A stretch of 36,385 nt of DNA from a virus (taxonomy: Duplodnaviria > Heunggongvirae > Uroviricota > Caudoviricetes), in the IMG/VR virus record IMGVR_UViG_2698536369_000022; one strand, written 5' to 3'. The notes below the pieces were generated by a model. The model was not told where the DNA came from. It did no database searches and saw nothing but the letters and a program-made list of their open reading frames with translations. The position numbers and the translations under genes were made by a program. Below are positions 2,819 to 36,385 of the stretch, piece by piece (within the stretch, counting starts at the first letter, position 1; each line of letters opens with the position of its first letter).

Positions 2819-2975
2819 CTGCTCCCTCCCTGTGTGGCATGGTCGCATGTGCGTGCGGAGGGGGTTACTGCTTTTTGTTGTCGCCGTGGCGGGAGAACGG
2901 CGCAGGGGTGAGATTACGCGCGTGGTGGGTGATGATTGTTGCCGAATCATTTAACGGATACAAGGGGCTGAAGCT
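2819..2975. promoter_or_regulatory. Divergent intergenic region between D and FI; candidate late promoter(s)
   Basis: 157-bp gap between divergently oriented D and FI starts; AAGGGG RBS before the FI ATG. No Ogr TGT-N12-ACA box could be matched confidently. Confidence 0.3.
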
Positions 2976-4672: not shown

Positions 4673-4727
4673 TAAGTAATATGCAGGCGGCGCAGTGCGT
4701 CGCCTCTGACTGAAAAGGAGAAAACTG

Positions 4728-5102: not shown

Positions 5103-5266
5103 TCACCCTGGTGTGCTTTGAGCGCATCGAAGATCTGGTGGCAGATATCGCCGCCATTTTTAACTGGTCGCCCGCCGAAATCTTCATGATGACGCCCGGC
5201 GAAGTGGTTAGCTGGCGTGAGCGGGCGGCACTTCGCAGCGGGAATGCAGATAATGAAGACTCTTGA
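4728..5266 (+). CDS. E+E' fusion made by programmed -1 ribosomal frameshift (join about 4728..5003 with 5003..5266)
   Basis: ORF 5030..5266 is in the -1 frame relative to E and opens right after a TAA at 4997-4999; a run of seven A (4998-5004, codons AAA AAA of E) is the only obvious slippery site before the E stop; E' ends ..IFNWSPAEIFMMTPGEVVSW.. overlapping the start of T. Confidence 0.6.
4997..5004 (+). promoter_or_regulatory. Candidate -1 frameshift slippery site (T AAA AAA A)
   Basis: Poly-A heptamer in frame with E Lys91-Lys92, directly after the -1-frame stop codon. Confidence 0.45.
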
Positions 5267-8060
5267 CATCCGGGTCGCTTTCAGCGCCGTTGACAGGCTG
5301 ACCCGGCCTGCCGAAAACGCCCGCCGCCTGATGGGGCAGTTTGGTGACTCCATCCAGCGAACGCAGGGGGCGATCAAAAATCTCGAGCGTCAGGCGCGAT
5401 CATTTGAGCGCGCCCGCGACGCTGTCAGTAAAGCGGATGCTGGCATCGTGAAAGCACGACGCCAGCTTAACGCCCTTAATCAGTTACAACGCACGGGTAC
5501 AGTGCTCAGCGAAAAACAACAAAAGCTGATGCAGCAGTTAAGCACCCGGCTTGAACGCCTGAATGAATCGCGCACACGGGAAATTCAGAAAATGCGGGAA
5601 CTTGGCGGAGAGCTGAAACGCCACGGCATTTCCCTGACAGGCAGCGATAACACCATCCAGCAGGCCATCAGACGCACCGAACAGTACAACAACCAACTTG
5701 AACGCGAACGGCAGGCGCTTGCGCGTGTAACGCGGGCGCGTGAGCGGTATTCGCGCGCGCAGGAAACCGCGGGAAAACTGAAAACAGGTGGTGCGCTGGC
5801 AATTGGTGCTGCAGCGGCTGGCGGCTATGCTGCCGGGCGTTTTTTGCAGCCTGCGATCGGGTTCGGCAAAGAGATGTCCCGCGTTCAGGCACTGACGCGA
5901 ATCGACAAAAACAGCCCGCAGTTTAAGGCGCTGCGTGAGCAGGCGTTAAAACTTGGTTCTGAAACACAGTTTACTGCGAGTGATGCCGCCAGTGGGCAGA
6001 GCTTTCTGGCAATGGCTGGTTTTACTCCGCAGGCCATTCAGGCCGCATTGCCCGGTGTTCTTAATATGGCGCTGGCAGGTGGCGTCGAACTCGGCGAGAC
6101 GGCGGATATAGGCTCCAATATCCTCACACAGTTCAACCTGACAGCCGATCAAATGGACCGGGTTGGCGATACGCTGACAGCGGCATTCACCCGGACCAAT
6201 ACTGATTTACGCGCGCTGGGCGAAACCATGAAGTATACCGGTCCGGTTGCCGCAAAACTTGGTATCAGTCTTGAAGAAGCGGCAGCCATGGCCGGGATGC
6301 TTGCCAATAATGGTCTTCGTGGAAGCGATGCTGGTACGGCCATGCGCGCAAGTCTGTCCCGCCTTGCATCACCGCCAAAAGCTGCGGCTGATGCGCTGAA
6401 AGAGCTGGGGGTGTCAGTTGCTGACGCCAGAGGCAAAATGCGCCCGATGGAGGATGTGCTGCTTGATCTCTATAAGGCGACACAAAAATACGGACAGGTG
6501 GACCAGGTCTCCTTCTTCAAGGGCATCGCCGGAGAAGAGGCGTTCGTTGGTTTGCAGACGCTTGTTGCGGCGGCTGGTTCAGGAGAGCTGCAAAAACTGA
6601 CCAGAGAATTGCAGGGGGCAAGGGGAGAGGCCGATCGCGTTGCAAAAGTAATGGCCGATAATCTTGATGGGGACCTGAAAAGTCTCGACAGCGCATGGGA
6701 AGGTCTTCGTATTCGCATCAGTGATCTGGTTGACGGTCCGCTGCGTTCTGTCACGCAGTGGCTCACGCGGGTGCTTGAAAAAATCACCTCGCTGGCGCAG
6801 GCCCATCCGGTACTGACGCGCCAGCTACTGATAGCAGGCGGTGCGTTGCTGGCAATGACTGCAACGGTTGGCTCGTTGTCGCTGGCTATTGGTGTGCTTG
6901 CTGGCCCGCTGGCAAAACTGCGTCTTGGCTTTTCCCTCCTGACCGGTTCAATGAATGCTGTCAGACTCCTGCCAGCACTATGGGGAATGGTGACGGGTTC
7001 CGTTTCGTTACTGGGGGGCGCTATCGGGGCGTTGTTCAGTCCGGTCGGTCTTATCGTGGCTGCGCTTGCCGGAGCTGCCGTTCTCATCTGGAAATACTGG
7101 GATCCCATCAGGGCATTTTTTGCCGGGGTGTTCAGCGGGATTATGGAAAGGCTGACCCCGTTGCGCGAAACCTTTGAACGGTTTGGTCCTGTTTTTGACG
7201 CAATCGGAAGCGGGATCAGCCAGGTGTTTAACTGGTTTAAATCGCTGTTGTCACCGATGGAGTCCAGCAAGGAAACGCTGGATAAATGTACCAGTGCTGG
7301 CGAGATATTCGGTAACGTTCTTGGCGGTGCGTTACAACTTGTTCTGACACCTGCAAAAATGCTACTGGATACGCTGGCGTGGATACTTGAAAAACTTGGC
7401 GTCCTTCCGGATGAAGCGGAAAGGGCGCGCAAGAAAATCGAAGACGCACAGCGTGCGGCCATTCTTCAGGACAAGGTTGCTCTGTTTCAGGGAGACATTG
7501 CGAAAATCAATCCGCCGAAGCCTGTGGAAAATGGCAATGGCACCGGAGGTGATAAACCCAAAGACAACAAACCGCTCACAGACAGCAATACCGGGACGCT
7601 ACGCAGACTCAGCAAAATTGCTGATAACACAGGTAAGCTGGTTGATGAGACGAAAAAACGCATTGGCCCCGGCGATATTGTCTTTAAGAACCTGCCCCGC
7701 GCACTTGCTGTTCGTGGGGAGTGGCAGGAGCGGAAGATTGCACAGGTCAGTAAGCCTGCCCCCGCAATTAATATCACACCCGTGGTCCCGGCTCCGCTGC
7801 CTCCGGCGCTGATCCCTGTTGTTGCGGCCAGCTCCCGCCCGGTGGCGGAGGCCATACGATCTCAAGTGGCATCAGTTCCTGTAACTTCCCGTAACCGGGA
7901 GCCTGTTGCCTCCGGATTTGGTGGTGAAATTCATGTTCATCTGCATAACGTTGTTACGCAGAACCCCCGCGAACTGGCGAAACTGGTCGGTGAAATGGTC
8001 AGGGCAGAAATGGAACGGCGCGCCCGTGCCGGGCGTGGCAGTTTTTACGATAAAGATTGA
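5217..8060 (+). CDS. T: Tail tape measure protein T
   Basis: 947 aa, long coiled-coil-rich N-terminal half, Gly/Ala-rich hydrophobic segment, position after E/E'; start may be an internal Met (MKTLDIRVAF..). Confidence 0.85.
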   Translation: MSGRHFAAGMQIMKTLDIRVAFSAVDRLTRPAENARRLMGQFGDSIQRTQGAIKNLERQARSFERARDAVSKADAGIVKARRQLNALNQLQRTGTVLSEKQQKLMQQLSTRLERLNESRTREIQKMRELGGELKRHGISLTGSDNTIQQAIRRTEQYNNQLERERQALARVTRARERYSRAQETAGKLKTGGALAIGAAAAGGYAAGRFLQPAIGFGKEMSRVQALTRIDKNSPQFKALREQALKLGSETQFTASDAASGQSFLAMAGFTPQAIQAALPGVLNMALAGGVELGETADIGSNILTQFNLTADQMDRVGDTLTAAFTRTNTDLRALGETMKYTGPVAAKLGISLEEAAAMAGMLANNGLRGSDAGTAMRASLSRLASPPKAAADALKELGVSVADARGKMRPMEDVLLDLYKATQKYGQVDQVSFFKGIAGEEAFVGLQTLVAAAGSGELQKLTRELQGARGEADRVAKVMADNLDGDLKSLDSAWEGLRIRISDLVDGPLRSVTQWLTRVLEKITSLAQAHPVLTRQLLIAGGALLAMTATVGSLSLAIGVLAGPLAKLRLGFSLLTGSMNAVRLLPALWGMVTGSVSLLGGAIGALFSPVGLIVAALAGAAVLIWKYWDPIRAFFAGVFSGIMERLTPLRETFERFGPVFDAIGSGISQVFNWFKSLLSPMESSKETLDKCTSAGEIFGNVLGGALQLVLTPAKMLLDTLAWILEKLGVLPDEAERARKKIEDAQRAAILQDKVALFQGDIAKINPPKPVENGNGTGGDKPKDNKPLTDSNTGTLRRLSKIADNTGKLVDETKKRIGPGDIVFKNLPRALAVRGEWQERKIAQVSKPAPAINITPVVPAPLPPALIPVVAASSRPVAEAIRSQVASVPVTSRNREPVASGFGGEIHVHLHNVVTQNPRELAKLVGEMVRAEMERRARAGRGSFYDKD

Positions 8061-23535: not shown

Positions 23536-23551
23536 TGGGGCTGTCCTTTTT
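23524..23551. terminator. Bidirectional hairpin between convergent Q and the orphan gene
   Basis: Stem ACAGCCCC / GGGGCTGT with loop GTGAT, flanked by AAAA upstream and CCTTTTT downstream; overlaps both stop codons. Confidence 0.6.
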
Positions 23552-24074
23552 ACCAGAGTTGAACCATTTTCTGGGTGCCGTCAGGCTTGAGATTATCAAT
23601 TTCAGAGAGAACGTAATATTGAATGGCTTCACAAACGGTGGTGTATGGTGAATTACCTTCTTTAAGTGGCACGATATTATTATTAACGCGAACCTGTATT
23701 TCATCGTTATACATTGCGATCGAAAGAGGAGTATGCACGAACGCGACTTCGCCAGGTGTGTCGTCAACCACTGTCTCAATGCTGAAAATCAGTTTTCGCT
23801 CATCATTGCCGCCCCTTGCTTTGGGGGTAGCGGCAGGAATCTGAGATAAAGGCATTCTGCGAAACCCTTCAGTTGTTTCCAGTCCGCATGAAACGTAATG
23901 CTGGCGATTACCGTCGCTATCCGTCCATGTCTGTGATGGCAGCTCCAGAGAGATTTCATAAGCATCAACAATTCCCTGGGCAAGGTGTACAAGCGGGGTC
24001 AGATCTTCATTGCGGCGAAAACTTTCCTTTACCTGCTCTCGTTTTTCTCGTAACTGCTTGTAATTAATGACCAT
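23550..24074 (-). CDS. Orphan protein of about 174 aa (no recognised family)
   Basis: ORF with internal ATG (MVINYKQLREK..) preceded by GGAGG; protein-like composition; no motif I recognise. Track ORF 23550..24113 starts at GTG. Confidence 0.6.
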   Translation of the reverse strand: MVINYKQLREKREQVKESFRRNEDLTPLVHLAQGIVDAYEISLELPSQTWTDSDGNRQHYVSCGLETTEGFRRMPLSQIPAATPKARGGNDERKLIFSIETVVDDTPGEVAFVHTPLSIAMYNDEIQVRVNNNIVPLKEGNSPYTTVCEAIQYYVLSEIDNLKPDGTQKMVQLW

Positions 24075-24639
24075 AAAACAGCCTCCATTGATTTCTTTGC
24101 TCGTATTTTGCACTTATGAAGTGTGGTCGGCAAGGTGCCGCATCACTGACGCGCTTCGCTTGTCTGCTGCTTCGCCGGGGCATAAAAAATTTATGCCCCG
24201 ACTCTCCAGCTCCTGTATCAATCAGATAATTTCACGACGTCTTCCGACTTATCGCTATCATCGACAGTCAGGCTCTTACGCAATCCCGCCGCGCTGACTG
24301 CATGTTCTCGCCGCCTCAGTGCGATTTTGATGGCCTTACCTTTCATCCCATCAAATCAGAACCCCTTACGTCTTTTTCACGTTCAGCGTGAGCGATACAG
24401 CCATTCTGTTGTGTCGCTGCGACATCGTTCAGGGAATGCTATTTACCCCCTGAAACGCGGGCTGTTCCCCCGTCACCTGCGCGCAGAAAAAGCGCGTTTT
24501 TTTGTGCACGCACGGATCCTTGACGGATCCAGCCGCCACGCGGGCCGGAAGGGCAAAAATTCGTTCAAAAAAATTGTGCAAATTTGTGCACTATTGTGCA
24601 GCAGGGCGATGTGCGATTATCGCCCTGGTTTGAGGGGGA

Positions 24640-25179
24640 TCAGGTGTTATTTTTATCTGTCGTCAGTGGGCTAAACCATCCACAATTTACATCGCAGGAC
24701 TGATGCGTTCTGTCCTCGTGTTTCTCCTGCCACAATGCTTTTCCGCCAGCCTTTATGATGGCTCTTTCAACATCCCGCTCGTATCGCAAGGGCTGAAATA
24801 CGTCATTAATGAAATATTCGCTTATGTCCGGAAGCGATACTGCAAGATTATTTGTTTGTTGCGCCGTCCGGCTATGCAGCAAAGCGGCATACTTTAATGC
24901 GTCCTGTGCTTTCTGGAATTTAAGTGCATAGTCAGTGGCGATTTTTTCCAGTTCAGCGATGCGATTTTTTGCTGTTTCCAGTTCATCCAGCAGTGCCAGC
25001 ATGTCTTCCGGTCCAGCCAGAAGTCTGAAGGTGTTGATCGCGTCAATATCCACACCGTAATCTTTAAGTTCCTGTTCGCTTAACAAATCATCATCAACTG
25101 GCAATATTAACAGGCGTTCCATTGCCGGAATTGCACGTTCTGCTGCCATTTGTAGTGCCTGATAGTCAATTTTGCTCAC
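24640..25179 (-). CDS. Ead/Ea22-like family protein (paralogue 1)
   Basis: MSKIDYQALQMAAERA..MLALLDELETAKNRIAELEK shares N-terminal module with the adjacent gene. Confidence 0.55.
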   Translation of the reverse strand: MSKIDYQALQMAAERAIPAMERLLILPVDDDLLSEQELKDYGVDIDAINTFRLLAGPEDMLALLDELETAKNRIAELEKIATDYALKFQKAQDALKYAALLHSRTAQQTNNLAVSLPDISEYFINDVFQPLRYERDVERAIIKAGGKALWQEKHEDRTHQSCDVNCGWFSPLTTDKNNT

Positions 25180-25751
25180 TGACTGCCTCCTTTACGTAGC
25201 TCGGCGGCAAAAGCTACTGCGTGATCATGATGTTCAAGTGTGTATGCACACTCCGCAAACATCTCCACGCCCTGCGCCCGCACTTCAGCCAGGAAAGCAT
25301 CGGTGGCTGGAATGGGCTTTTGTGGTGATATAGCAATGCGAATTGTCTCAAGGTCTGGAGCTGTTTCCGCTGTTGGCACCTTGATATAACCCGTCTGCAC
25401 CCCATTCATGATGAACCTGCGACGGTCATCACATATCGCCTTAAGCCCTGCATTCTCCGCCGCCAGCGCCGCACGACTGGCCTCCAGTTCAGCAATGCGT
25501 TTGTTTTGGGCTTCCCGTTCATCCAGCAGCGCCTGCACTACTTCAGGGTTGAAAGCTGCGATATAACGAGCATTAGCAGCAGCTTTTTTCTGTCCATCAA
25601 ACCCAGGCCATTTGATAACATCTTCGCATCGTTTATCACCTGGCGTATGCACCGCATACGTACCAGTACCCGGCGAAATAAATGCGACCCATTCGCCCTG
25701 TGTTGCCTGTTTTGCTAACTCACGCAGTGCCTGATAGTTGATTTCGCTCAT
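25176..25751 (-). CDS. Ead/Ea22-like family protein (paralogue 2)
   Basis: MSEINYQALRELAKQATQGEW...NARYIAAFNPEVVQALLDEREAQNKRIAELE; family name from memory of prophage annotations. Confidence 0.55.
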   Translation of the reverse strand: MSEINYQALRELAKQATQGEWVAFISPGTGTYAVHTPGDKRCEDVIKWPGFDGQKKAAANARYIAAFNPEVVQALLDEREAQNKRIAELEASRAALAAENAGLKAICDDRRRFIMNGVQTGYIKVPTAETAPDLETIRIAISPQKPIPATDAFLAEVRAQGVEMFAECAYTLEHHDHAVAFAAELRKGGSQ

Positions 25752-25814
25752 TAAGTCGGTCTCCTTGTTTATGTTCTGAGGTGGAGATCAGGGCGAACTC
25801 GCCCTGACGTTGTG

Positions 25815-26126
25815 TTATTCAGGAAATAACGCCCTGATATTTCCGGCCATCTGACTGGTTATCTGTGCGGTTGGTACTGGCTGTGAGTCGGGGCGTTCTG
25901 TCCTGGTTTGTGTCACTGATAACGCCTCATCATCAGCCCATGCAGCCAGTCGGTAAGCCTCTGCCGGATTCATTTTCAGAAGTGCCAGCCCAGCCAGAAA
26001 AGCCACGCGTTGGCCGCTTTTGCGGGCTTCTGGTGTAAGGCTGTCCAGCCATGCGCATGCTTCGCCTTCGTTCTTGACGGCGGCGGGCTTCAGATAGAAA
26101 CTTATCCGTCTGGTTGGTGTCGTCAT
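25815..26126 (-). CDS. parR: ParR-like adaptor/repressor of a type II partition system
   Basis: From internal Met: MTTPTRRISFYLKPAAV..AWLDSLTPEARKSGQRVAFLAGLALL resembles R1 ParR N-terminus (..RRTIAFKLNPD..LDSIPQGERS..RAALTAGLAL); immediately downstream of the parM-like gene. Confidence 0.55.
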   Translation of the reverse strand: MTTPTRRISFYLKPAAVKNEGEACAWLDSLTPEARKSGQRVAFLAGLALLKMNPAEAYRLAAWADDEALSVTQTRTERPDSQPVPTAQITSQMAGNIRALFPE

Positions 26127-26130
26127 TGGT

Positions 26131-27090
26131 TTACTCCTTGTCCATTGCGTACAGCCCATTAACCAGAGCAAACTGTGGCACCCCGTCCGCGATGAAAGTC
26201 GCATTAACTCCGCAGGCTTCGCGGATAGCGGGTGCCACAATCTCCGCCCCTCCACCGACAACCATCACCCGCCCGTAACCCGAAAAAACCGCCAGCGCGC
26301 GGATCACGCGTTGTTTCAGTGTTTCTTCCTTTTCACGAATAACCGCCATCAGGCTGTTGTAATGCGCGTCATTGTGGATGTGCTGGCGCAGCCAGGCTTC
26401 ATCATGGCGATGTTCGATAATGGTATTGGCGATGTGGTGACTGGTACGCATACCGTTAGTGGCCATCACCGACAGTACGGCATCGGCCATCAGGGAAACG
26501 CCTACGTGTGGATCGCAAAACACCTGGCTGATACCTGCCAGTTGTCCCTGAACCTTTGCCACATCCAGCGTGGTTCCGCCTAAATCCACAATCAGCAGGG
26601 ATTCAAACGGACTCATGTCAGCCAGTGCCTTAAAGCCAGCCGGAATGGATTCAGGCATAACCCGTACGTTGCGGATAGTGAATGCCTCACTGTTCTGATA
26701 CTCCACCGGGCGCATAACGTTCGCTTTTTTGCGGTTGATGTTGGCCATGTCCGGCTGGGCGTTTGTGTCGAAATACTCGCTCAGTGGCAGGGTGACAACC
26801 ACATCCACCTCCTGTGGCGTGATGCCTGATTTGACCAGCGCATGATGAATGGCAATGACATTCACATCGCTGTACTGGTATTGCGTGTCGGTCGTCTGGA
26901 CAAAGCGATCGCTGACCGGATCAAAACCATAGCGCACGCCATCAAGCATGTAGTTCGCGGGCTGCATGCCACCGAACGGCGCAGACCATTCCGACTTGAA
27001 GCTGTTCGGGCTGATGGCGTTGCGGCGTTCGCCGTTCTCAGTCCATGCCAGCTTGATGTTGGTGGAGCCGTCGTCGATGTGAATTTTCAT
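26131..27090 (-). CDS. parM: ParM/StbA-family actin-like ATPase
   Basis: MKIHIDDGSTNIKLAW, ISPNSFK, YSDVNVIAIHHALVKSG, NRKKAN, VRVMPESIPAG, LLIVDLGGTTLDVAKV, VMVVGGGAE and ALVNGLY align with R1 ParM motifs as I recall them. Confidence 0.75.
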   Translation of the reverse strand: MKIHIDDGSTNIKLAWTENGERRNAISPNSFKSEWSAPFGGMQPANYMLDGVRYGFDPVSDRFVQTTDTQYQYSDVNVIAIHHALVKSGITPQEVDVVVTLPLSEYFDTNAQPDMANINRKKANVMRPVEYQNSEAFTIRNVRVMPESIPAGFKALADMSPFESLLIVDLGGTTLDVAKVQGQLAGISQVFCDPHVGVSLMADAVLSVMATNGMRTSHHIANTIIEHRHDEAWLRQHIHNDAHYNSLMAVIREKEETLKQRVIRALAVFSGYGRVMVVGGGAEIVAPAIREACGVNATFIADGVPQFALVNGLYAMDKE

Positions 27091-27166: not shown

Positions 27167-30007
27167 TCATATATCGCGGCGCGTTTTTTGCTCATTTACG
27201 GGATTTGTGAATCCCGTTTCTGTCTGTTTTTTGTTTCCACTGGTCAGGCCACCCCGCAGCAGGTCTGCTTTGCGGCGGGCGCGTTCAGTGGTTTCACTGA
27301 TTCTCTGTGCGTGCTCTGCGTCGCGGATGGCGCGCAGCATGTCAGAAAGCACGGTAACGGGTGTTTTCATGGTGTTCTGGTCTTGCTGAAGTGTGGATGC
27401 CAGGCGTGCGGCGGCTTCGGGGTCTGATGCCCCCAGCTGTTCCAGATAGCTGGCGATCGGGTTATGGCGGATCTCCGTGCTGCTTACGCCGTGGTTACGG
27501 CTCAGGCGCTGCCAGAGCTGCGTGATCCGTCTGTCCGGTCGGGTATCCGGTTTGCGTACAATTTCAAATTCCTGCGGTGCAATGATGCTGCCGTCAACGT
27601 ACAGGCTGCCGCCCCGTAACAGGTGCTGCATCTGCTGTTCACCGATATGCAGGCCGAGAGATTCGGCAGATTCCCGCCATTCTTTAGCGAGTAATTCGTG
27701 GTTATCAGGCAAAGGCCGCTGCTGTTTGCGGCTCTGTGTCCAGCTCTGCATTTCATCACTGCTGTTTTTTGCCTGTTTGTCACGAAGCGAACGCATCAGC
27801 GCCCGGCGTTCGTGCCGTTTCAGTGAGCGCATCCATTCGTTCACTTCAACGCCGTCAGGGAGCTGCGGCCACGGTGCTGGCCGTTCTTCCGGCTGTTCTG
27901 TCCCGTTGTTGTCCGTTTCCTGTACACGGGGACAGTTATTGCCACGAGTCCAAGGGGCGGCAGGGCCGCCCTGAAGGTCAAAACCATTTTCGCGGGCGCT
28001 GTCTTCCGCTTCCGGTTTGCGTCTTACCAGCTTCCAGTTATCCGGATGCGTGCATACGCGGGAAGACTCCCCAATGAGCGGCGACCAGATCCCGTAAATC
28101 TGTACGCTCTGTTCACCGTAATCGTTCAGCTCATCTGCGAGGTCGTAGGCGGTGCGAATCAGGTAGTCTTTGCGTGGAACAAGTACGCCACCCTGTTTCT
28201 CAATGTAGGTGGCAAAACATCCGGCATCAGCGGCAGCGAGTACCGCGTCCATTGCGTCATCCTTCAGCCGTTGCGGGCCTTCCGGGTTGCGTGCCATCTG
28301 GCTGGCAAGGCGGCGCAGTTCACGCCACACCTGACGGGAGGGGATACCAAAGAACTGGAACTGGCGGACCCGGTGAAGGCGCGCCCAGCCGATGGCGCGT
28401 TCCACGCTCTCGGCCATTGATTTTCCGGTTTCGTGGTCAACGCGTGGCTTGCCCGTTTTCGGGTCGATGCCATCTACGGCGCGGCTGTCCAGGTTTTTTC
28501 CGATGTAGGTCGCGATATAGCTGGTTGGTGTGCCTTTTGAGCCGTCGACATACTCCGCCTTAAAGCGCGGAGTAATATCATTGCCCAGCTCGTGGCGGTC
28601 TTCCTGAATGGCAATATCGCGGGTGATGACCACGATGCTGTCGATTTCTTCCGGATGAGCAAAGACCATCATATGCCAGTGCACGGTGCCGTCATGGTGA
28701 GGCTCCACCGTGCGGATGCCATACCAGCGAAGACCGTCGCGGCTCAGTTTTTTGCGGACCGCCGCAAAAAACGTGTTAACCAGGTAATCGCTGGAGTCGC
28801 GCATGGTGGCCCCGTTCCATTTGGGGTTCGGATGACCGTTCTCCGTTGTTGCGTGGTATTTTGACGGGCAGGTGACAGTCAGAAACACCGCTCTGTCGCC
28901 ACGGGCTTCGGCCAGAAGTTCCAGTCCTTTCATGGTGGCCATCATTTCTGCCTTACGGTGAACCGGGTTACTTACTCCCGCGTAATACACTGTCTCGAGA
29001 TCAATCGTGAACCCGTCTTCATTTTCCAGCATGAAACTTTTCAGGAAATCGCGTGTTTTCTCGCGCTGTGCGCGAAACTCGCTTAACGCGTCCTGGCTCA
29101 GATAGGGTGATGTTTTTCTGGAAACCAGACAGGCGGCGCGGCGTTGTTCTTCTCTCCACTCGCAACGTAACAGCCACAGTTTGCGTTTCCACCAGTCCGC
29201 ACAGGTCAGGCGAAGGATTGCGCCCGGCAGCAGTTCTGTGTCCGGTTCGTTCCTCCGGTCTTTGTCTGTTGTCAGTGCGTCATAATGTGGCGGCATGGCG
29301 TGCAGGTGTAACGCCATTCGGGCCAGCATCTGATACGCCTTCAGCGCCACTTCCATGGTCAGCTCACCATCGGTCGCGCCAAAGCCATCGCAGAGTGTCT
29401 CGAAGGTGCTGCTGAACATTGCCGCCGTCATGGTGGCCAGTGTCTGTATCTGGTGTTTGTTGAGCTGCGGCAGGTACAGCAAATCGTCCAGGCGTTCGCG
29501 CCCGGCAAGGGAGCGATAACCCGGTGTCAGCCAGCGTCCGTCAGTGCGATCCAGACGTTCGAATATTTTGCGCAGGGTTCCGCGTGCATAGCGTTCAGCC
29601 TGCCAGCTCTTTTTGCCTTTCTGGCGATCGGCTTCCTGTTTTTTGCGCAGGAAAGAGAGGTGGCAGCTCAGTGGTTCACGCAGATAAACAGGTAGTGCCT
29701 TTAGTGTGGCAAAGGCACGGGCTACTGGGTCTTGTTCTGTTGCCCGGCGCTTACTGATGATGCTCTGTGCCAGCTTTTCACGCTGTCCGGCTTCCTCAAG
29801 GGATGCCATGAGTTTTTTACCCATGGCGGATTGTGCGAAAAAGGCTTCTTCCTTCGCTTCCTGTTCTTCCTGTGCCCTTTTGTCTGCCTCAAGGTAGTAA
29901 CGGATGGCGCGTTGCAGGTCGGTTTCAGTTTCCTGCCTGTGCTCCGTAAATCTGGCCGGATCAATGGCTGGCCGTGGTTCATTCCAGCTCCATGCAAACT
30001 CATTCAT
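27167..30007 (-). CDS. A: Replication initiation protein A (rolling-circle endonuclease, GPA family)
   Basis: About 946 aa from the internal MNEFAWSW Met (ATGA overlap with the upstream ORF); contains HDGTVHWHMMVF HUH-like motif; position in the early operon as P2 A. Confidence 0.8.
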   Translation of the reverse strand: MNEFAWSWNEPRPAIDPARFTEHRQETETDLQRAIRYYLEADKRAQEEQEAKEEAFFAQSAMGKKLMASLEEAGQREKLAQSIISKRRATEQDPVARAFATLKALPVYLREPLSCHLSFLRKKQEADRQKGKKSWQAERYARGTLRKIFERLDRTDGRWLTPGYRSLAGRERLDDLLYLPQLNKHQIQTLATMTAAMFSSTFETLCDGFGATDGELTMEVALKAYQMLARMALHLHAMPPHYDALTTDKDRRNEPDTELLPGAILRLTCADWWKRKLWLLRCEWREEQRRAACLVSRKTSPYLSQDALSEFRAQREKTRDFLKSFMLENEDGFTIDLETVYYAGVSNPVHRKAEMMATMKGLELLAEARGDRAVFLTVTCPSKYHATTENGHPNPKWNGATMRDSSDYLVNTFFAAVRKKLSRDGLRWYGIRTVEPHHDGTVHWHMMVFAHPEEIDSIVVITRDIAIQEDRHELGNDITPRFKAEYVDGSKGTPTSYIATYIGKNLDSRAVDGIDPKTGKPRVDHETGKSMAESVERAIGWARLHRVRQFQFFGIPSRQVWRELRRLASQMARNPEGPQRLKDDAMDAVLAAADAGCFATYIEKQGGVLVPRKDYLIRTAYDLADELNDYGEQSVQIYGIWSPLIGESSRVCTHPDNWKLVRRKPEAEDSARENGFDLQGGPAAPWTRGNNCPRVQETDNNGTEQPEERPAPWPQLPDGVEVNEWMRSLKRHERRALMRSLRDKQAKNSSDEMQSWTQSRKQQRPLPDNHELLAKEWRESAESLGLHIGEQQMQHLLRGGSLYVDGSIIAPQEFEIVRKPDTRPDRRITQLWQRLSRNHGVSSTEIRHNPIASYLEQLGASDPEAAARLASTLQQDQNTMKTPVTVLSDMLRAIRDAEHAQRISETTERARRKADLLRGGLTSGNKKQTETGFTNPVNEQKTRRDI
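27195..27220. repeat. Second copy of the palindrome (ACGGGATT-TGTG-AATCCCGT) inside the 3' end of gene A
   Basis: Near-identical arms about 73 bp from the first copy; encodes TGFTNPV of the A protein C-terminus. Confidence 0.6.
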
Positions 30008-30393
30008 GGCTGGTATCCCGTCACGCGCTGCCACTCCTGCGAGAAGAGGGCAGAAAGGCGGTTAAATTCAGCGGTGTATTCACTCAGCGAGGCACACCCG
30101 CCAGCAGTGCGATGCGCCAGCATTGCCGCAAATACGGAGGCCGGGGAGTCGTAATACGCCAGCAGTGATTCTCCGTGTGGTGTCAGGCAGTGCAACGCCA
30201 GCCCGTGTGGTGTGAAGTCCACGCGGTAGCAGTCGTCTACTGTGAAATAAAGGGTGTCTGCATTCTCCGGTTTTGTGGTGCGTGCTCTGTTGTCACGACC
30301 ACGGATGTAGAGATCAAATAATCCCTGAAGAACGGGAGCCAGACGGGTGTCCTGTGTGCGCACCCATCTTGTGAAGTCATGAGCGTCAATCAT
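30004..30393 (-). CDS. Hypothetical protein (129 aa), coupled upstream of A
   Basis: Protein-like ORF whose stop overlaps the A start; no recognised motif. Confidence 0.55.
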   Translation of the reverse strand: MIDAHDFTRWVRTQDTRLAPVLQGLFDLYIRGRDNRARTTKPENADTLYFTVDDCYRVDFTPHGLALHCLTPHGESLLAYYDSPASVFAAMLAHRTAGGCASLSEYTAEFNRLSALFSQEWQRVTGYQP

Positions 30394-30465: not shown

Positions 30466-30693
30466 TTAATGGAGTTTGTTTTGCTGCTGGATGAGCCGTT
30501 GAAGTTCGCGCAGATCATCCGCCAGATAGCTGAAAACAGAGGCGGAATAGGTGTTTGATAGCGCGTGGCTGCGCTCATGCAGCATATTGATGTGCATGAT
30601 TTGCGCGACGCGTGATGCGCGGAAAAGCCTGCGGTTGATTTCAGTCTGGATGTGACGACGCGCAGCGTATGCGCGCTGTTTGCGGTTTGCCAT
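30466..30693 (-). CDS. Hypothetical small basic protein (75 aa)
   Basis: ORF with helical, Arg-rich character; no recognised family. Confidence 0.4.
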   Translation of the reverse strand: MANRKQRAYAARRHIQTEINRRLFRASRVAQIMHINMLHERSHALSNTYSASVFSYLADDLRELQRLIQQQNKLH

Positions 30694-30865
30694 GGTGTGG
30701 CCTCTGCGGTAGTAAGTTGTAAAAACTCACCATCCAGAGGTGGAAAACTCGGGGTGGTGAGACGTACAGGGTTTCCACAACCGGCTACCACAGAACCCGG
30801 CCCGACCGAAGTCGGCCCCATACGCCCCACCATAATTCGTGTGCGAAAAAGACGTGGCGATACGG

Positions 30866-30893
30866 TACGCACAAAAAAACCGCTGGCGCGGTT
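30866..30893 (-). terminator. Rho-independent terminator for minus-strand transcription
   Basis: Minus-strand reading AACCGC-GCCA-GCGGTT followed by TTTTTTTG. Confidence 0.5.
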
Positions 30894-31136
30894 GTGCGCT
30901 GTGATAGTCAGCGGGGTGGAAATCCCGGCACCCGTTTTATGAGGTGCAGCGGAAATGTAACCTGACTGATTGCGGCATGGCAAGCGGTTTTTTTGTGTGT
31001 GCATATACAGTTTTACTCCGTTTAATCCGGTTTTTTTTGCCTTCAACCGGAAAAGAAGGGTGTGTTACGCTTGAAGCACCCGCTGTTCCGTCAAAAACAA
31101 GGCGGGTGCTTTGTTCAACACACGTAAGGAAAATAA

Positions 31137-31223
31137 ATGTCTGATAGCGATAAATTTCATGTACCACGACAACCCGCACCCGCTCCGGAAAAGGGGCAGG
31201 GTTGGGATGATGAGGAGGACTAG
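31137..31223 (+). CDS. Possible 28-aa leader ORF (MSDSDKFHVPRQPAPAPEKGQGWDDEED)
   Basis: ATG preceded by AAGGAAAA; ends 6 nt before the membrane-protein gene; below the ORF-track size cutoff; weak evidence. Confidence 0.25.
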   Translation: MSDSDKFHVPRQPAPAPEKGQGWDDEED

Positions 31224-31229
31224 ATAGCA

Positions 31230-31715
31230 ATGGGTAATCAGCCATCTGAAAATAATGCTGCGCGGCGACACGAGGTGATGTATCGCCTCTGGAATAGTTA
31301 CTGGCTTGAGCACATTGTGGAGGTGTTTAATCGCCGCATGGATACGGTTATCAATGCAGTTATTCTTACGTTGGGAGCCACGGTGTTTGCTGACAGTAAT
31401 TTCAGTTGGCTGCTGGGCGGTATAGTGGCTGTACTTAGCGGCTGCAATATCGCCTGGAAATTTGGTCAGCGTGCGGAGGCGGCGAAAGCACAAGCCCATC
31501 GTTACAGTGTGCTGATTTCCGAAAGCGGCAATCTCAGCACGGAAGATGTGCTTAACAGGCTTCTGGAAACAGAGAAGCAGGACTCCCCAGTGATTGAAGG
31601 CATGGATGCAGTCGCGCGAAACAAGGCGAGTGCATCTATGGGGCTTAAACATCGCGACCAACTTTCCCTTCCTCAAAAAATCATTGCGTTATTGACCGTT
31701 GGTAATCCCGGTTAA
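31230..31715 (+). CDS. Two-TM membrane protein (161 aa), oriented opposite to the early operon
   Basis: GAGGAGG RBS 11 nt upstream; two adjacent hydrophobic helices (TVINAVILTLGATVFA; FSWLLGGIVAVLSGCNIAW) then a charged helical C-terminal region; own terminator. Confidence 0.65.
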   Translation: MGNQPSENNAARRHEVMYRLWNSYWLEHIVEVFNRRMDTVINAVILTLGATVFADSNFSWLLGGIVAVLSGCNIAWKFGQRAEAAKAQAHRYSVLISESGNLSTEDVLNRLLETEKQDSPVIEGMDAVARNKASASMGLKHRDQLSLPQKIIALLTVGNPG

Positions 31716-31742
31716 GCGCAAACGCTTAACTTTTCATTTCTT
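31711..31742 (+). terminator. Rho-independent terminator after the membrane-protein gene
   Basis: GTTAAGCG-CAAA-CGCTTAAC followed by TTTTCATTTCTT; overlaps the stop codon. Confidence 0.55.
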
Positions 31743-31754
31743 AAAGCGCGGCTT

Positions 31755-32069
31755 TCAGTCGTGCTTTTCTGTTGCACCAAGAAAAAAATCAAAAACCTTG
31801 TCGATGCGTTGAAGCAGTTCGCGCTGCATTGCTTCCGGTGTTTCGGGTTCTCCGGGTGAACCCAGCGTTGCGCAGAAGTCAGTGATTTCATGACGGAGCG
31901 TCAGGTGAATGGCAGGAGCCGTGGTTCTGGCGTGCTCCAGCTCATCCAGCAGCGCCAGCACGGCAGACGGCGAGAGCATTGCGCGAAACGCCAGTAATTT
32001 TTGATGTGTTGCCATTCGTTGCAGGTCAGTCGCCAGTTTGCGTAATTCCTGGTGGTTGATGGTTCTCAT
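31755..32069 (-). CDS. Ea22-like N-terminal-module protein (104 aa, third paralogue)
   Basis: MRTINHQELRKLATDLQ...AVLALLDELEHAR shares the INYQALRELA / LALLDELE module with the two genes at 24640-25751. Confidence 0.5.
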   Translation of the reverse strand: MRTINHQELRKLATDLQRMATHQKLLAFRAMLSPSAVLALLDELEHARTTAPAIHLTLRHEITDFCATLGSPGEPETPEAMQRELLQRIDKVFDFFLGATEKHD

Positions 32070-32311
32070 GCTCTGGCTTCCTTCAGTAGCTGGTTAAACA
32101 TGTTGGTAAGTGGATTGCCGCACCCGAATGGCATCGGGTTTATCTGGTAAGAAAAGCGACCGCCTGTTTTGCGCTCTTTTCTTACGACTGAACCGCTGCG
32201 CCAGAGTCGGCGTAACTCCGCATTAATGGCTGTGGCTGGGGTATTCAGTGCTGCGGCGATTTCTCCACCGCTACAATTCGGATGGGTAGAGATGTAGTCC
32301 AGAATGGTCAT
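32066..32311 (-). CDS. Putative winged-helix DNA-binding protein (81 aa)
   Basis: MTILDYISTHPNCSGGEIAAALNTPATAINAELRRLWRSGSVVRKER looks like a wHTH (helix, recognition helix, basic wing); start overlaps the upstream stop. Confidence 0.45.
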   Translation of the reverse strand: MTILDYISTHPNCSGGEIAAALNTPATAINAELRRLWRSGSVVRKERKTGGRFSYQINPMPFGCGNPLTNMFNQLLKEARA

Positions 32312-33038: not shown

Positions 33039-33152
33039 TTATTCGTCAGGGAAATAACGCTCAATCTTTTTTACTGAATGAATAATTCGCATAATCCCGA
33101 TTGCGCAGGCCACCGAAATAATCAGAACAATCCATGATATAAATATACTCAT
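33039..33152 (-). CDS. Possible 37-aa single-TM peptide (MSIFISWIVLIISVACAIGIMRIIHSVKKIERYFPDE)
   Basis: ATG overlaps the stop of the upstream 80-aa gene (ATGA); strongly hydrophobic core then basic tail; not in the ORF track (too short); hand-translated. Confidence 0.35.
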   Translation of the reverse strand: MSIFISWIVLIISVACAIGIMRIIHSVKKIERYFPDE

Positions 33153-33391
33153 ACGATATTCCCCAGTTTATATGGCTCAATGCGCTCTCCGCATTCTGCG
33201 GCGCAGACGAGTTCGGAAAGCTCGTTAATTGCATCCAAATCGTCAGCATAAAAGGCTACGTCATAAAGACTTCTGATTGCTCTTGCTAATGAGTCATGGG
33301 CTGCGTGTTCGGCGTGGGGGCCTGATGTGTTTAAGCGAAAATGAAAACGCTCAAGTGCTTTGTTAATGAGAGTTTTATATTCTTTGTCCAT
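33149..33391 (-). CDS. Hypothetical protein (80 aa)
   Basis: Protein-like small ORF in the early operon. Confidence 0.45.
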   Translation of the reverse strand: MDKEYKTLINKALERFHFRLNTSGPHAEHAAHDSLARAIRSLYDVAFYADDLDAINELSELVCAAECGERIEPYKLGNIV

Positions 33392-34356: not shown

Positions 34357-34878
34357 TTAGTTGCCTTCGCTGCTTTTGAGTCGTTCCAGCTTTGAGCTTC
34401 TACCCATATAAACCCGTTTTCCGTTAACGGTCTGGCAGTCTTCTTTGTCGGCTGGAGAGAACTTTCTTTTCTGGCGGTCATACGTCCAGTAACTTTTCCA
34501 GTTGTGCCATTCTGGGGGCTCGTACTCTGGTAGCTCATCAGCCAACTTGTCCCACTCTTTGGCGTTAAACCACCATACTCCGTCTGAGTTTTCATCTTCT
34601 GGGTTTGTGCGCGTTTTGTGTCCCGGCATTTGACCGCGATGAATGGCTACGCGCAGTGCAGATTTTGTTAGGCCAATATATGCCGCACCTTTTTCCAGAG
34701 AGCAAAGCCCGGCGATCGGACCATCCAGCCGTAAAGTCGCTCCTTTTTTGTAGGAACGCTTTTTCTTGTTTTCTTCGTGTTCGTCGTCGTTGGCGGCATC
34801 AATGGATCCGCTGAGTGTGTCGCTTTCCTGAAGTGGTTGGTGGTCAGATAACTCTTTATCGGCAATGAAGTCCCGCAT
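34357..34878 (-). CDS. Cox/Apl-like excisionase-type HTH regulator, first gene of the early operon
   Basis: Divergent from the C repressor across a 103-bp gap; HTH ..GAAYIGLTKSALRVAIHRGQMPG.. followed by ..GVWWFNAKEWDKL.. resembles AlpA/Xis-type winged helices; longer (173 aa) than P2 Cox with an acidic N-terminal extension. Confidence 0.55.
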   Translation of the reverse strand: MRDFIADKELSDHQPLQESDTLSGSIDAANDDEHEENKKKRSYKKGATLRLDGPIAGLCSLEKGAAYIGLTKSALRVAIHRGQMPGHKTRTNPEDENSDGVWWFNAKEWDKLADELPEYEPPEWHNWKSYWTYDRQKRKFSPADKEDCQTVNGKRVYMGRSSKLERLKSSEGN

Positions 34879-34981
34879 TTGTTATCCTCTTGCGTTGGTG
34901 CGCTTGTTGCGCCTTGTGATGGTTTGTTTTGGTTTGTTTTCTTCACCCTGTGGTGAAGAGCGAAAAGAGGATACTCATCGT
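34879..34981. promoter_or_regulatory. Lysis-lysogeny switch region (divergent Pe/Pc-type promoters and operators)
   Basis: 103-bp gap between the Cox-like and C genes containing direct repeats GGTTTGTTTT x2 and palindrome TTCACC-CTGT-GGTGAA. Confidence 0.5.
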
Positions 34982-35323
34982 ATGGTGAACATGTCAAGAG
35001 ATTACGCCAAAAAACTAAAGGCGATCAGAAATGCGGAAAAACTTACACAATCTCAGTTTTCGCAAGTAACGGGGGTTTCTGTAGGGACTATAGGAAATTA
35101 TGAGTCTGGATATAAACCTGCGCGAATTGAGGTTGTAGAAAAAGTAATCCAGGTCGAGCGATTCGAAAAATACACTATGTGGATACTTCACGACAAAACA
35201 TTTCCCGCTGCCGGGCAGGTTGCTCCGGCTCTCTCTCTTGATGGCTCTATTCAGTCGGAGGGCGATCAGGTTTCAATCGGCATTACCCAAAAATCGCCCC
35301 GATCAGGCCGCAATGTTGGCTGA
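34982..35323 (+). CDS. C: Immunity repressor C (XRE-type HTH)
   Basis: ..LTQSQFSQVTGVSVGTIGNYESGYKP...RFEKYTMWILHDKTFPAAGQVAPALS resembles P2 C (..LSRQQLADLTGVPYGTLSYYESGRSTP...QFTKYTLWFMTNQIAPESGQIAPALA); start at the internal ATG after AAGAGGA; the track ORF N-terminal extension is unlikely. Confidence 0.8.
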   Translation: MVNMSRDYAKKLKAIRNAEKLTQSQFSQVTGVSVGTIGNYESGYKPARIEVVEKVIQVERFEKYTMWILHDKTFPAAGQVAPALSLDGSIQSEGDQVSIGITQKSPRSGRNVG

Positions 35324-35392
35324 CGCTACACATTGAGCGAATTACATCTCGCAAGGAGTGTTTAGTTAATTTATCCGTTGGAGGGGCTAATC

Positions 35393-36385
35393 ATGTCGAT
35401 TAAGCAACTCAAAGACGGACGTTATCAGGTTGATGTAAGGCCTCAGGGTGCGGAAGGAAAGCGGATTCGAAAAATCTTCACCCTGAAATCAAAGGCTCAG
35501 GAGTTTGAGAAGTATGTGTTACAGAACTTCCATGACAAGCCATGGCAGGCTAAGCCAGCTGATCAGCGGCGATTATCAGAGTTACTTGATGCGTGGTGGA
35601 TGCTTGACGGGCGTAATCAGGCTTACGGGGATAGCTACAGGGTCAGGTTAGGGAAGGTTATTCGTGAAATGGGGGATCCTCGTGCCAGTCAGATGACGCG
35701 AAAATTTATGCTCGAGTATCGGTCAGAGAAATTACAGGCCGGATTAATGCCGTCCAGTATTAATCGTGACTTATGCGTTCTGTCTACCATGTTCACGGTG
35801 CTGATTGAAGCTGAGGTCTTTCACAACGTGAACCCTGTGCGCGGTATACGCAAACTGAAAGTTCAGAACACGGAAATGGCCTTTCTTTCTGATGATGAGA
35901 TTGAACGGCTTCTTGAGCGACTGGAAGGGGATGCGCGTCGTGTTGCCATTCTGTGCCTTTCTACTGGTGCCCGATGGAGTGAAGCATCGGAACTACGTGG
36001 AGAACATATCGTTGGCAACCGGGTGACGTTTTTTAACACCAAAAACGGAAAATCCCGCTCGGTTCCTGTGGCGGATTCGGTCGTGCCTCTGATTAAAACC
36101 CGTCGAACGGGATTGTTGTATCAGGTTGATTATTTGAAGTTCCGGGAGATTCTTCAGGAGGTGAAACCGGATTTGCCGAAGGGGCAGGCTACGCATGTCA
36201 TGCGTCATACATTTGCCACGCACTTTATGATGAATGGCGGAAATATTGTTACGTTGCAACGAATCCTGGGGCACGCAACGATTCAGCAAACAATGACGTA
36301 CGCTCATTTTTCGCCGGACTTCTTACAGGACGCGATCAACTTTAATCCGCTGGCTGAAAGTGTCCATAAACTGTCCATCGATTAG
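35393..36385 (+). CDS. int: Tyrosine integrase (P2-type)
   Basis: GGAGGGG RBS then MSIKQLKDGRYQV..; C-terminal catalytic region ..HVMRHTFATHFMMNGGNIVTLQRILGHATIQQTMTYAHF with the R..H..R..Y signature; stop is the last codon of the window. Confidence 0.85.
   Translation: MSIKQLKDGRYQVDVRPQGAEGKRIRKIFTLKSKAQEFEKYVLQNFHDKPWQAKPADQRRLSELLDAWWMLDGRNQAYGDSYRVRLGKVIREMGDPRASQMTRKFMLEYRSEKLQAGLMPSSINRDLCVLSTMFTVLIEAEVFHNVNPVRGIRKLKVQNTEMAFLSDDEIERLLERLEGDARRVAILCLSTGARWSEASELRGEHIVGNRVTFFNTKNGKSRSVPVADSVVPLIKTRRTGLLYQVDYLKFREILQEVKPDLPKGQATHVMRHTFATHFMMNGGNIVTLQRILGHATIQQTMTYAHFSPDFLQDAINFNPLAESVHKLSID

Follow-up and report, generated by a model that had tools for sequence, protein, structure and literature searches.

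Why should a prophage carry, in the midst of an early operon that is otherwise read entirely from the minus strand, a pair of genes that run the opposite way? The question is raised by a stretch of Caudoviricetes DNA of 36,385 nucleotides (nt), the IMG/VR record IMGVR_UViG_2698536369_000022, the whole of which we call the window. The window is a P2-like prophage of the P88/Xuanwuvirus type (Peduoviridae), and at 31005-31779 it holds a cassette that encodes a 28-amino-acid (aa) micropeptide and a 161-aa membrane protein. A sequence-only reading of this locus had described a self-contained unit lying antisense to the early operon and had suggested a moron expressed during lysogeny. Every feature that it named was found where it had been placed: the 28-aa open reading frame (ORF), the GAGGAGG site, the 161-aa ORF and the terminator hairpin. 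The antisense placement holds as well, with the flanking early genes all on the minus strand and the cassette genes on the plus strand. Here we find that both ORFs are genes, that the larger product is probably a distant relative of the SLATT effectors of conflict systems, and that the cassette appears to be one of several alternative cargoes of a portable 5' element. The features of the cassette are as follows.

31005-31779, genes on the plus strand: whole cassette, ~775 base pairs (bp), an insertion or replacement relative to P88-type phages, delimited by breaks of homology
31026-31060, listed as plus strand: 5' boundary element with two perfect, interleaved helices, A (TCCGGTT/AACCGGA) and B (CCTTC/GAAGG)
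31063-31071, plus strand: putative extended -10 promoter, TGTTACGCT (TGnTAnnnT), recognized by its invariance; predicted start near 31078
31076-31115, plus strand: hairpin 2, GCACCCGC...GCGGGTGC, then TTTGTT, from folding energy
31137-31223, plus strand: gene for the 28-aa proline-rich micropeptide, product MSDSDKFHVPRQPAPAPEKGQGWDDEED, with Shine-Dalgarno sequence AAGGA at 31126-31130
31212-31218, plus strand: GAGGAGG, Shine-Dalgarno-like site of the main ORF, read from the sequence inside the last micropeptide codons
31230-31715, plus strand: gene for the 161-aa, predicted SLATT-like inner-membrane protein, from dN/dS (0.12) and a phrog_6315 match
31344-31457, plus strand: region coding for the two predicted transmembrane (TM) helices and their loop, from hydropathy, positive-inside flanks and model helices
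31710-31741, plus strand: intrinsic terminator of the window copy, stem GGTTAAGCG/CGCTTAACT with a T-rich tail, from folding energy

Both Open Reading Frames Are Genes

The ORF at 31230-31715 on the plus strand is a real gene. When the window is compared with the 80%-identical copy of Escherichia coli strain Ch1, nonsynonymous substitutions in its frame are rare relative to synonymous ones (dN 0.15, dS 1.24, dN/dS 0.12), and the differences at codon positions 1, 2 and 3 number 27, 19 and 72. A 203-aa ORF lies antisense over the gene; the same comparison gives it dN 0.31 against dS 0.21 (dN/dS ~1.5), and it is therefore considered non-coding. The sequence-only reading had named decay of the plus frame beneath a conserved opposite strand as one outcome that would speak against it; selection is seen on the plus frame instead.

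The 28-aa ORF, previously called only possible, is likewise a real and strongly constrained gene, whose importance had been underestimated. Across 28 pairwise comparisons pS ranges from 0.3 to 0.87, near saturation, and pN from 0.02 to 0.14, so that pN/pS is ~0.05-0.2. The two genes are tightly spaced. In every readable P2-type copy the micropeptide stop codon lies 5-9 nt ahead of the main ATG, and in the P2-type, lambdoid and Photobacterium loci examined the micropeptide gene is found 2-9 nt upstream of the main ORF, with the exception of one lineage. Its last codons always supply an AAGGA or GAGGA in the homologs, 5-14 nt ahead of the main ATG. We considered an RNA structure that would mask the main Shine-Dalgarno sequence and AUG until opened by leader translation; this was rejected, unpaired probabilities there being about average (0.41-0.74 in 13 loci). 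At the 3' end, the hairpin at 31710-31731 (-10.9 kcal/mol, z -3.85) has TTTCATTTCTT after it, and the main-gene stop codon lies within its stem. The terminator is unidirectional, since the minus strand has no U-tract.

Two public records touch the same gene pair. In Fels-2 (NC_010463; L013) the SLATT-like gene and its micropeptide, at 3411-3962, are unannotated and the opposite-strand ORF STM2733.1 is annotated instead. In Yersinia phage vB_YenM_42.18 (L014) the pair at 2861-3456 is also unannotated, its place being taken by the opposite-strand gp08 (222 aa). The public annotation at both loci appears to be wrong. At 87 nt the micropeptide gene is below the minimum length of common gene callers, and with the opposite-strand ORFs annotated in these two phages this has made the family invisible in current annotation.

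A Putative SLATT-Type Membrane Hairpin

The hydropathy profile of the 161-aa protein contains two hydrophobic segments, residues 39-54 and 59-76, separated by a 4-residue loop and bordered by R35/R36 on one side and K77/R81 on the other. By the positive-inside rule these flanks predict a membrane hairpin with both termini in the cytoplasm (N-in/C-in). An AlphaFold2 model built on a 123-sequence alignment scored a predicted local distance difference test (pLDDT) of 94.8 and a predicted template modelling score (pTM) of 0.87, replacing a run with 12 close sequences only (pLDDT 63). The model has a long helix at 7-52, helices at 59-76 and 78-101, and three shorter cytoplasmic helices. The two adjacent TM helices of the sequence-only reading are thus predicted by hydropathy and by the model.

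Searched alone, the window protein matches phrog_6315 (expect value, E, 7e-42), a PHROG of unknown function. A profile search of 1.84 billion representative proteins retrieved 163 representative relatives, nearly all stand-alone and 150-180 aa long, from Enterobacter, Cedecea, Arsenophonus, Citrobacter, Salmonella, Escherichia, Pseudomonas and Photobacterium. Scans of the single cassette proteins against Pfam, NCBIfam and PADLOC gave nothing above cut-off; no Pfam SLATT model matched the window protein, which has a weak, sub-threshold resemblance to the ATP-synthase subunit I-like PF03899 (E 0.001). The family as a whole is more informative. When 123 relatives were scanned singly, 28 matched NCBIfam SLATT_4 (best E 8.6e-7), 4 matched SLATT_1 and 1 matched Pfam SLATT_fungal, all below the curated cut-offs. 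UniRef names some relatives DUF4231 or "SMODS and SLOG-associating". Structural matching against BFVD, a set of predicted viral structures, returned annotated SLATT proteins as the best Foldseek matches of the model (probability 1.0, TM score 0.55-0.66). Profile similarity to SLATT thus recurs across the family, and the predicted model displays the SLATT fold, a two-TM helical hairpin extended by cytoplasmic helices.

On the strength of the profile matches, the UniRef names, the model and its top BFVD matches, we file the protein as a probable divergent, stand-alone branch of the SLATT superfamily, lying outside every curated SLATT family. SLATT is required for both the defence and the toxicity of DRT10, where it is a predicted pore-former (bioRxiv 10.64898/2026.04.29.721553), and DUF4231 has been reported as enriched in defence islands (PMC10799925). 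The small-membrane-effector architecture that had been noted from the sequence is consistent with this remote kinship to a family used in phage defence. A class II holin was also considered and rejected: the gene is situated in the early region and not in the lysis cassette, and its match to an Rz-like PHROG is only faint (E 0.054). In phage EKP1 the SLATT-like gene adjoins a holin gene, yet on the opposite strand.

A Micropeptide Better Conserved than Its Neighbor

Micropeptides of 26-48 aa precede the SLATT-like gene in phages of very different background. The Fels-2 product reads MSDSDNFHVLPRPAPAPKPEPGQDKK and that of Yersinia phage 42.18 ends in ...DTNDFHILHKPAPPEEKKTDDEE; lambdoid E. coli prophages encode MERCVDKYEERHVPLRQKPPVPPKPPKEN, Providencia phage PSTNGR2lys ...PKPIRPTPPPPSTPSDGGKK, phage EKP1 ...PTPPPPTNTSNRGKPKQ and a Photobacterium prophage ...SDKFHVPQREIPPPPTKNKD. 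Common to them is a core motif, D-K-F-H-V-P, a basic residue, and then PxPxP or a polyproline run, with the basic residue 2-3 positions ahead of the prolines. The distance from the proline run to the downstream start is not constant, varying from 3 to 11 codons. The heptapeptide SDKFHVP is identical in the window and in Photobacterium, where the main proteins are ~21% identical. Judged by these alignments, the micropeptide is a co-evolving gene whose motif is far better conserved than the effector. Conservation well beyond that of the effector favors a partner among invariant host components, and we infer that the micropeptide may interact with one of these, for example the ribosome tunnel or elongation dependent on elongation factor P (EF-P).

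An Accessory Unit in a Fixed Orientation

The flanks of the cassette are 88-94% identical to phages P88, P88_4B11 and Shae_phiSM. Homology to all three stops at 30997-31005 and resumes at 31779/80, and the content of the slot differs among them. In P88_4B11 it is empty and 21 nt long. In P88 (L001, 2154-3184) it holds genes for an NfeD-like membrane protein and an SPFH/Band-7 "lipoprotein", which lie on the minus strand, co-oriented with the early operon and unlike the antisense cassettes; in Shae_phiSM it holds a DNA-binding protein gene. Presence and absence between collinear phages with sharp junctions (~31004 and ~31780) is what defines a moron, and the cassette is rare: it occurs in 11 of 5426 complete E. 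coli genomes, the lambdoid-type relative in 51 of the 5426, and a single GTDB species representative carries the close family. The moron and self-contained unit proposed earlier is in good agreement with this pattern. P2-like phages are known reservoirs of defence genes (PMC9122126), and 8% of known P2 defence systems lie between integrase and gpA (bioRxiv 10.64898/2026.02.27.708500).

The genomic contexts seen belong to Enterobacterales and Vibrionaceae; a search for related loci of the Pseudomonas relative found none. The position of the cassette within the early region is variable. It occurs between cox and C, in the lysis-lysogeny switch region, in Enterobacter and related prophages (L009, L010, L043; 3787-4780), just after cox in L045, after one or two early genes in L044 and L046, in mid-operon in L011, Fels-2 and Yersinia 42.18, and just before gpA in the window, L007 and the Photobacterium prophage L038. 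In the first of these groups, either the early promoter Pe must read ~800 nt antisense through the cassette before reaching cox, or the cassette must be co-transcribed with C and int.

The orientation does not vary. In P2-like phages the cassette is on the C/int strand wherever those genes are in view; in lambdoid prophages it is antisense inside the early-left operon, beside a cI-like repressor, and in EKP1 it is antisense between the Q antiterminator and the holin. It is antisense to the flanking lytic genes in all contexts examined, and with ~13 distinct contexts a chance orientation is unlikely (~2^-13 if the contexts are independent). No minus-strand terminator was found inside the cassette, so lytic transcription must read through it antisense. 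The invariable orientation would fit expression only during lysogeny.

A different observation concerns another Photobacterium prophage (L042), in which, at 4369-5834, an AAA_15/AAA_21 ATPase gene directly follows the CI repressor gene and is itself followed by a gene with a weak HNH-domain match. The prophage is P2/186-like, and the two genes, at its repressor/integrase end, have the look of a defence-type pair.

A Portable 5' Element

Upstream of the micropeptide lies a conserved region that was overlooked in the sequence-only reading and that appears to act as a portable platform common to unrelated cargo. The window and the Ch1-type copy become homologous precisely where helix A starts, at 31026. 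The layout in the window is A-L1-B-A'-L3-B' (TCCGGTT...CCTTC, AACCGGA-AAA-GAAGG), with a hairpin energy of -8.2 kcal/mol. An explicit helix search recovered the A-B-A'-B' arrangement in 18 of 22 loci, in 5 variants of helix A and ~9 of helix B, always ending 69-79 nt ahead of the micropeptide ATG; the helix A motif occurs once per locus. Just downstream, G-T-G-n-T-A-n-n-n-T is invariant in all 14 aligned P2-type copies, set in sequence that varies. It agrees with the key positions of an extended -10 promoter (TGnTAnnnT), and no -35 element is present upstream of it.

Next comes hairpin 2, with a stem-loop at 31076-31109 (-19.3 kcal/mol, z -4.46). All P2-type copies have a hairpin at this position, with differing stem sequences, and it is probably the 5'-terminal stem-loop of the cassette mRNA. 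A third helix, C, pairs TTGTGGT with ACCACAA just 5' of the Shine-Dalgarno sequence; in the window group it is formed by GTGTGTT and AACACAC, with two compensatory pairs.

Several readings of these structures were discarded. Hairpin 2 with TTTGTT is not a general attenuator, as homologs are missing the U-run. The A and B helices do not suit the operator of a dimeric protein, because their stem sequences covary and their spacing varies from 8 to 14 nt, nor a plus-strand pseudoknot, where loop 3 would span a 6-7 bp stem with only 0-4 nt; A and B therefore cannot coexist on the plus strand. A sigma-54-like TGGCAC motif in the Photobacterium copies has a GG-GC spacing of 9 and not 10 nt.

Read on the minus strand, A and B are arranged like the two stems of a classical H-type pseudoknot, with 4-7 bp in stem 1, 6-7 bp in stem 2, ~1 nt in loop 1 and an A-rich loop 3 of 4-10 nt. 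Most mismatches in hairpin 2 and helix C are C.A when read as plus strand and hence G.U when read as minus strand. Folding energy summed over 21 loci is -762 kcal/mol for the minus strand versus -663 for the plus strand, and in 8 of 10 loci the minus strand has the lower z-score (means -2.3 vs -1.8). The structure may therefore be one that acts in the early-operon transcript, for instance by pairing with the cassette mRNA or by processing against it, with the promoter on the plus strand. No useful consensus came from RNAalifold on the MAFFT-aligned 5' regions, in which differences in loop length put the stems out of register. A lenient Rfam search of 30950-31800 found no family, and no sigma-70 promoter for a separate antisense small RNA (sRNA) was found on the minus strand inside the leader.

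The 3' part of the element was present in 40 contigs of an IMG/VR scan, of which only 9 have the micropeptide and SLATT-like pair. In the remaining contigs the element (~110 nt) precedes at least 8 unrelated ORF families, whose start codons fall 63-73 nt after it and whose products measure 58-60 aa, 68-95 aa or up to 151-158 aa. These too sit antisense between minus-strand early genes (L048-L087, P2-like contigs of IMG/VR). Examples are a 60-aa family (MSYDKKVIDALNAAI...) and a 151-158-aa family (MELNITTCYKIFEKH...DSDWDFEPADTRLN; phrog_5286), and further ones belong to phrog_9021, phrog_10549 and phrog_35031. No match of known function and no credible PADLOC match was obtained for these cargo families. 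The element also occurs in the sequenced phages SEN4 and SEN5 and in Yersinia phages; P2 and 186 gave no match. The cassette is thus one of the alleles of an antisense accessory locus that is polymorphic; what defines the locus is the expression element that the alleles share, and the micropeptide is part of the SLATT-like cargo and not of the platform.

The Prophage around the Cassette

The early operon occupies the minus strand and reads toward gpA; the repressor and integrase genes are on the plus strand. The features surrounding the cassette, in the transcription order of the operon, are given below.

35378-36385, plus strand: integrase gene
34865-35323, plus strand: C repressor gene
34357-34878, minus strand: Cox, first in the transcription order of the early operon
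33149-33391, minus strand: DUF4754 gene, after Cox
32066-32311, minus strand: gene for a MarR-type winged helix-turn-helix protein
31755-32069, minus strand: Ead/Ea22-like gene, from a weak, sub-threshold match to Pfam Ead_Ea22; labelled ead/Ea22-like in P88
31005-31779, genes on the plus strand: the cassette, between the Ead/Ea22-like gene and the IsrK RNA
30873-30947, minus strand: IsrK RNA (64.7 bits)
30750-30837, minus strand: C4 antisense RNA (78.8 bits)
30466-30693, minus strand: "derepression protein" gene, 75 aa, PF25738
between the "derepression protein" gene and gpA in transcription order, minus strand: 129-aa gene
27167-30034, minus strand: replication endonuclease gpA

IsrK, C4 and the "derepression protein" gene (30466-30947, minus strand) form an immI-like antirepressor control unit that adjoins the cassette upstream of gpA. 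IsrK has a sigma-70-like promoter, TTGCCA-18-TACATT (30983-30954), and unit and cassette adjoin each other in the window, in AVS0542 and in L007. In P88_4B11 (L002, 1480-2097) a 205-aa "transcriptional regulator" has been called across the C4 and IsrK RNA genes, apparently in error. Downstream of gpA we found a ParM/StbA actin-like segregation ATPase (26131-27090, minus strand; PF06406, E 1e-81) and a StbB-like plasmid stability protein gene (25815-26261, minus strand). Together with an integrase in one prophage, these suggest a capacity for plasmid-like maintenance. The hotspot between gpA and the portal gene also contains two tandem Ead/Ea22-like paralogs (24640-25751, minus strand), the third copy being that which flanks the cassette (31755-32069). 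PADLOC returned no match for any ORF of this hotspot (23550-27090).

What Might the Cassette Do?

We put forward, with about even confidence, that the cassette is a lysogeny-expressed moron, in which a SLATT-like effector and its micropeptide act against superinfecting phages by membrane disturbance or exclusion. The proposal draws on the SLATT relationship, the known roles of SLATT proteins, the accessory behavior of the unit and the orientation rule. A constitutive, -35-less extended -10 promoter (~31063-31071) would yield an mRNA of ~660 nt headed by a stabilizing hairpin. Ribosomes would make the 28-aa peptide, and the 161-aa protein would start 6 nt on, via re-initiation or its own Shine-Dalgarno sequence, forming a helical hairpin (N-in/C-in) in the inner membrane, with its helical bundle in the cytoplasm. 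By analogy with the SLATT effectors of CBASS and DRT10, the protein would be kept inactive in the lysogen; superinfection would switch it to disturb the membrane, leading to abortive infection or to exclusion at DNA entry, and protection of the lysogen population and the resident prophage would result. The micropeptide would be a dedicated partner, be it regulator, sensor or inhibitor. During the lytic growth of the prophage itself, convergent transcription from Pe and antisense RNA would silence the cassette, given its antisense embedding.

A number of observations weigh against this proposal. A pore-former made constitutively would have to be kept in check, and no restraint was found. Against SLATT_4 (NF033632), where the curated cut-off is 55 bits, the window protein reaches only 14.6 bits (E 0.023), and PADLOC models do not match it; the interpretation reached from the sequence is thus supported in part, for the accessory unit and for a remote place in a membrane-effector family. 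No SMODS, SLOG, TIR or reverse transcriptase (RT) gene was adjacent in any locus (>25 annotated or gene-called loci), and a literature search found no description of the protein family, its accessions or the locus. The assignment of the promoter is not secure, since the helices overlap the proposed -10 and their folding on the minus strand is no worse. The other cargoes, having no known function, lend no support through guilt by association. The GC content (48.8% vs 52.8%) is not distinctive, nor is that of third codon positions (GC3). The terminator, described earlier as clean, is indeed present in the window copy but is particular to it and not conserved in the others, and so is no fixed part of the cassette. 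Finally, one lineage of three IMG/VR contigs (L088, L090, L091) retains an intact SLATT-like ORF next to a broken micropeptide gene, whose frame is shifted by 2 nt after codon 2 and closed by a premature stop; there, an out-of-frame ORF of 72 aa from upstream runs across the start codon of the main gene. Thus, the peptide is not strictly indispensable, and a role as direct inhibitor is weakened by this peptide-less lineage.

In an extended scenario, which we regard as rather doubtful, the cassette would be a minimal self-sensing SLATT system with the micropeptide as its sensor, and the 5' element a general antisense platform of P2-like early operons. The micropeptide would read an invariant host machine, as a nascent chain in the exit tunnel or through its dependence on EF-P, so that translation disturbed by a phage would alter synthesis of the effector or free the pore. 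In the platform, a promoter would be joined with the interleaved helices and, on the strand of the early transcript, with a fold resembling a pseudoknot, and cargo would be kept on in lysogeny and off in lytic growth.

Other explanations do not invoke superinfection. The cassette could be a toxin-antitoxin or addiction module, a SLATT-like membrane toxin held by a labile micropeptide or by antisense RNA, which stabilizes the prophage or kills after its loss; in the antisense version the logic would be that of hok/mok/sok, with the micropeptide ORF as mok. A small gene, a gap of 2-9 nt and a larger putative toxin is a typical operon order for such modules, and the 5' untranslated region with the Shine-Dalgarno sequence is covered by a structured complementary region whose folding is equally good or better on the minus strand, the positions that are not Watson-Crick being mostly C.A on plus and hence G.U on minus. 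A protein antitoxin that is essential is, however, hard to square with the lineage in which the main ORF is intact and the micropeptide broken, and it is odd for the micropeptide motif to be far more conserved than the toxin it must bind; an antisense sRNA would require a sigma-70 promoter, and none is detectable in the leader. Neither Pfam, NCBIfam nor PADLOC gives a family match, nor is there an Rfam family in 30950-31800, and an integrated prophage has little to gain from plasmid-style addiction. We consider this explanation unlikely. Still less probable, and indeed very unlikely in our view, is a self-regulation device of the phage, in which the convergent unit, its structured 5' element and the antisense overlap tune cox/gpA and the lysis-lysogeny decision, the proteins being secondary. 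The cassette is always antisense within repressor-controlled lytic units, in some phages it occupies the switch region between cox and C (L009, L043) or a place close upstream of gpA (window, L007, L038), its 5' element is retained while the cargo swaps, and the interleaved helices have, on the minus strand, the classical H-type geometry with an A-rich loop 3. Against this stand the strong purifying selection on both ORFs at the protein level, the normal regulation of most close relatives that have no cassette, and the occurrence of the same protein pair in lambdoid phages with other switch architectures.

It is also conceivable, and to us quite unlikely, that the product benefits the host outside any phage conflict, as a lysogenic-conversion factor such as a small channel or stress protein involved in ion homeostasis or in tolerance of antimicrobials or colicins. 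Such a role would be in keeping with a membrane protein that has its helical bundle in the cytoplasm and no recognizable sensor partner, and with the faint likeness to ATP-synthase subunit I (PF03899, E 0.001, sub-threshold), and expression from the prophage would be expected. But profile and fold both point to the SLATT effectors of conflict systems as the closest recognizable relatives, the family is confined to temperate phages wherever its context is seen, and it turns over rapidly in a swap-prone slot, like the defence genes of P2-like phages (bioRxiv 10.64898/2026.02.27.708500). An anti-superinfection moron stays the reading that we favor.

Comparison with Known Systems

The SLATT effectors, such as SLATT-5 of DRT10/UG17 and the 2TM effectors of CBASS, share with the 161-aa protein a long N-terminal helix, a tight two-TM hairpin and cytoplasmic helices, and, like its family, they are found on mobile elements involved in phage conflict. 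Unlike them, the cassette protein is stand-alone at ~160 aa, never beside a nucleotide-generating or RT partner, and is paired with a conserved proline-rich micropeptide of 26-48 aa, always antisense in lytic operons. The triggering of SLATT has been termed "a central open question" (bioRxiv 10.64898/2026.04.29.721553). For its study, a 160-aa SLATT-like protein accompanied by nothing conserved but a 28-aa peptide would offer the simplest system.

Membrane proteins made in lysogens for exclusion or abortive infection include lambda RexB with RexA, SieB of P22 and lambda, and HK97 gp15. The cassette protein resembles these: a temperate phage encodes it, it is small and predicted for the inner membrane, and the lysogen is expected to produce it for use against other phages. 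It has no sequence or profile similarity to them, its partner is a micropeptide and not a RexA-like sensor, and its gene is antisense to the early operon instead of co-oriented with the repressor operon.

Short leader ORFs that control downstream genes are known from the proline-codon leaders mgtL/mgtP, from the arrest peptides SecM, TnaC and the RAPP type, and from type I systems such as hok/mok/sok. As in these, the gene for a membrane protein follows a short ORF to which it is tightly coupled, a proline-rich peptide is constrained at the amino-acid level, and complementary transcription covers the 5' region. In contrast to hok-type toxins of <60 aa, the cassette protein has 160 aa and two TM helices, and no promoter for an antisense sRNA was found; unlike leader-ORF systems, there is no conserved structure over the ribosome-binding site and the distance from proline run to start is variable.

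Like the classical morons (lambda bor/lom, P2 old/tin/fun), the cassette may have a promoter of its own, and its copy in the window has a terminator; with these and the P2 defence hotspots it shares its presence or absence among collinear phages, between integrase and gpA. It differs from the hotspots of P2-like phages in lying outside the main one between gpA and portal (PMC9122126; bioRxiv 10.64898/2026.02.27.708500), and from both in having a portable 5' element common to at least 8 unrelated cargo families and a strict antisense orientation; neither this element nor the antisense rule was found described in the literature. The 5' element reveals a swap-prone, strictly antisense slot in P2-like early operons, with at least 9 cargo families that have no known function. 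The slot is a defined place in which to seek genes of phage-phage conflict, and would be a natural design for lysogeny-only expression. The locus would thus join two known kinds, SLATT effectors and phage morons, with what is new in it: a conserved proline-rich micropeptide, a strict antisense embedding and a portable, structured 5' element.

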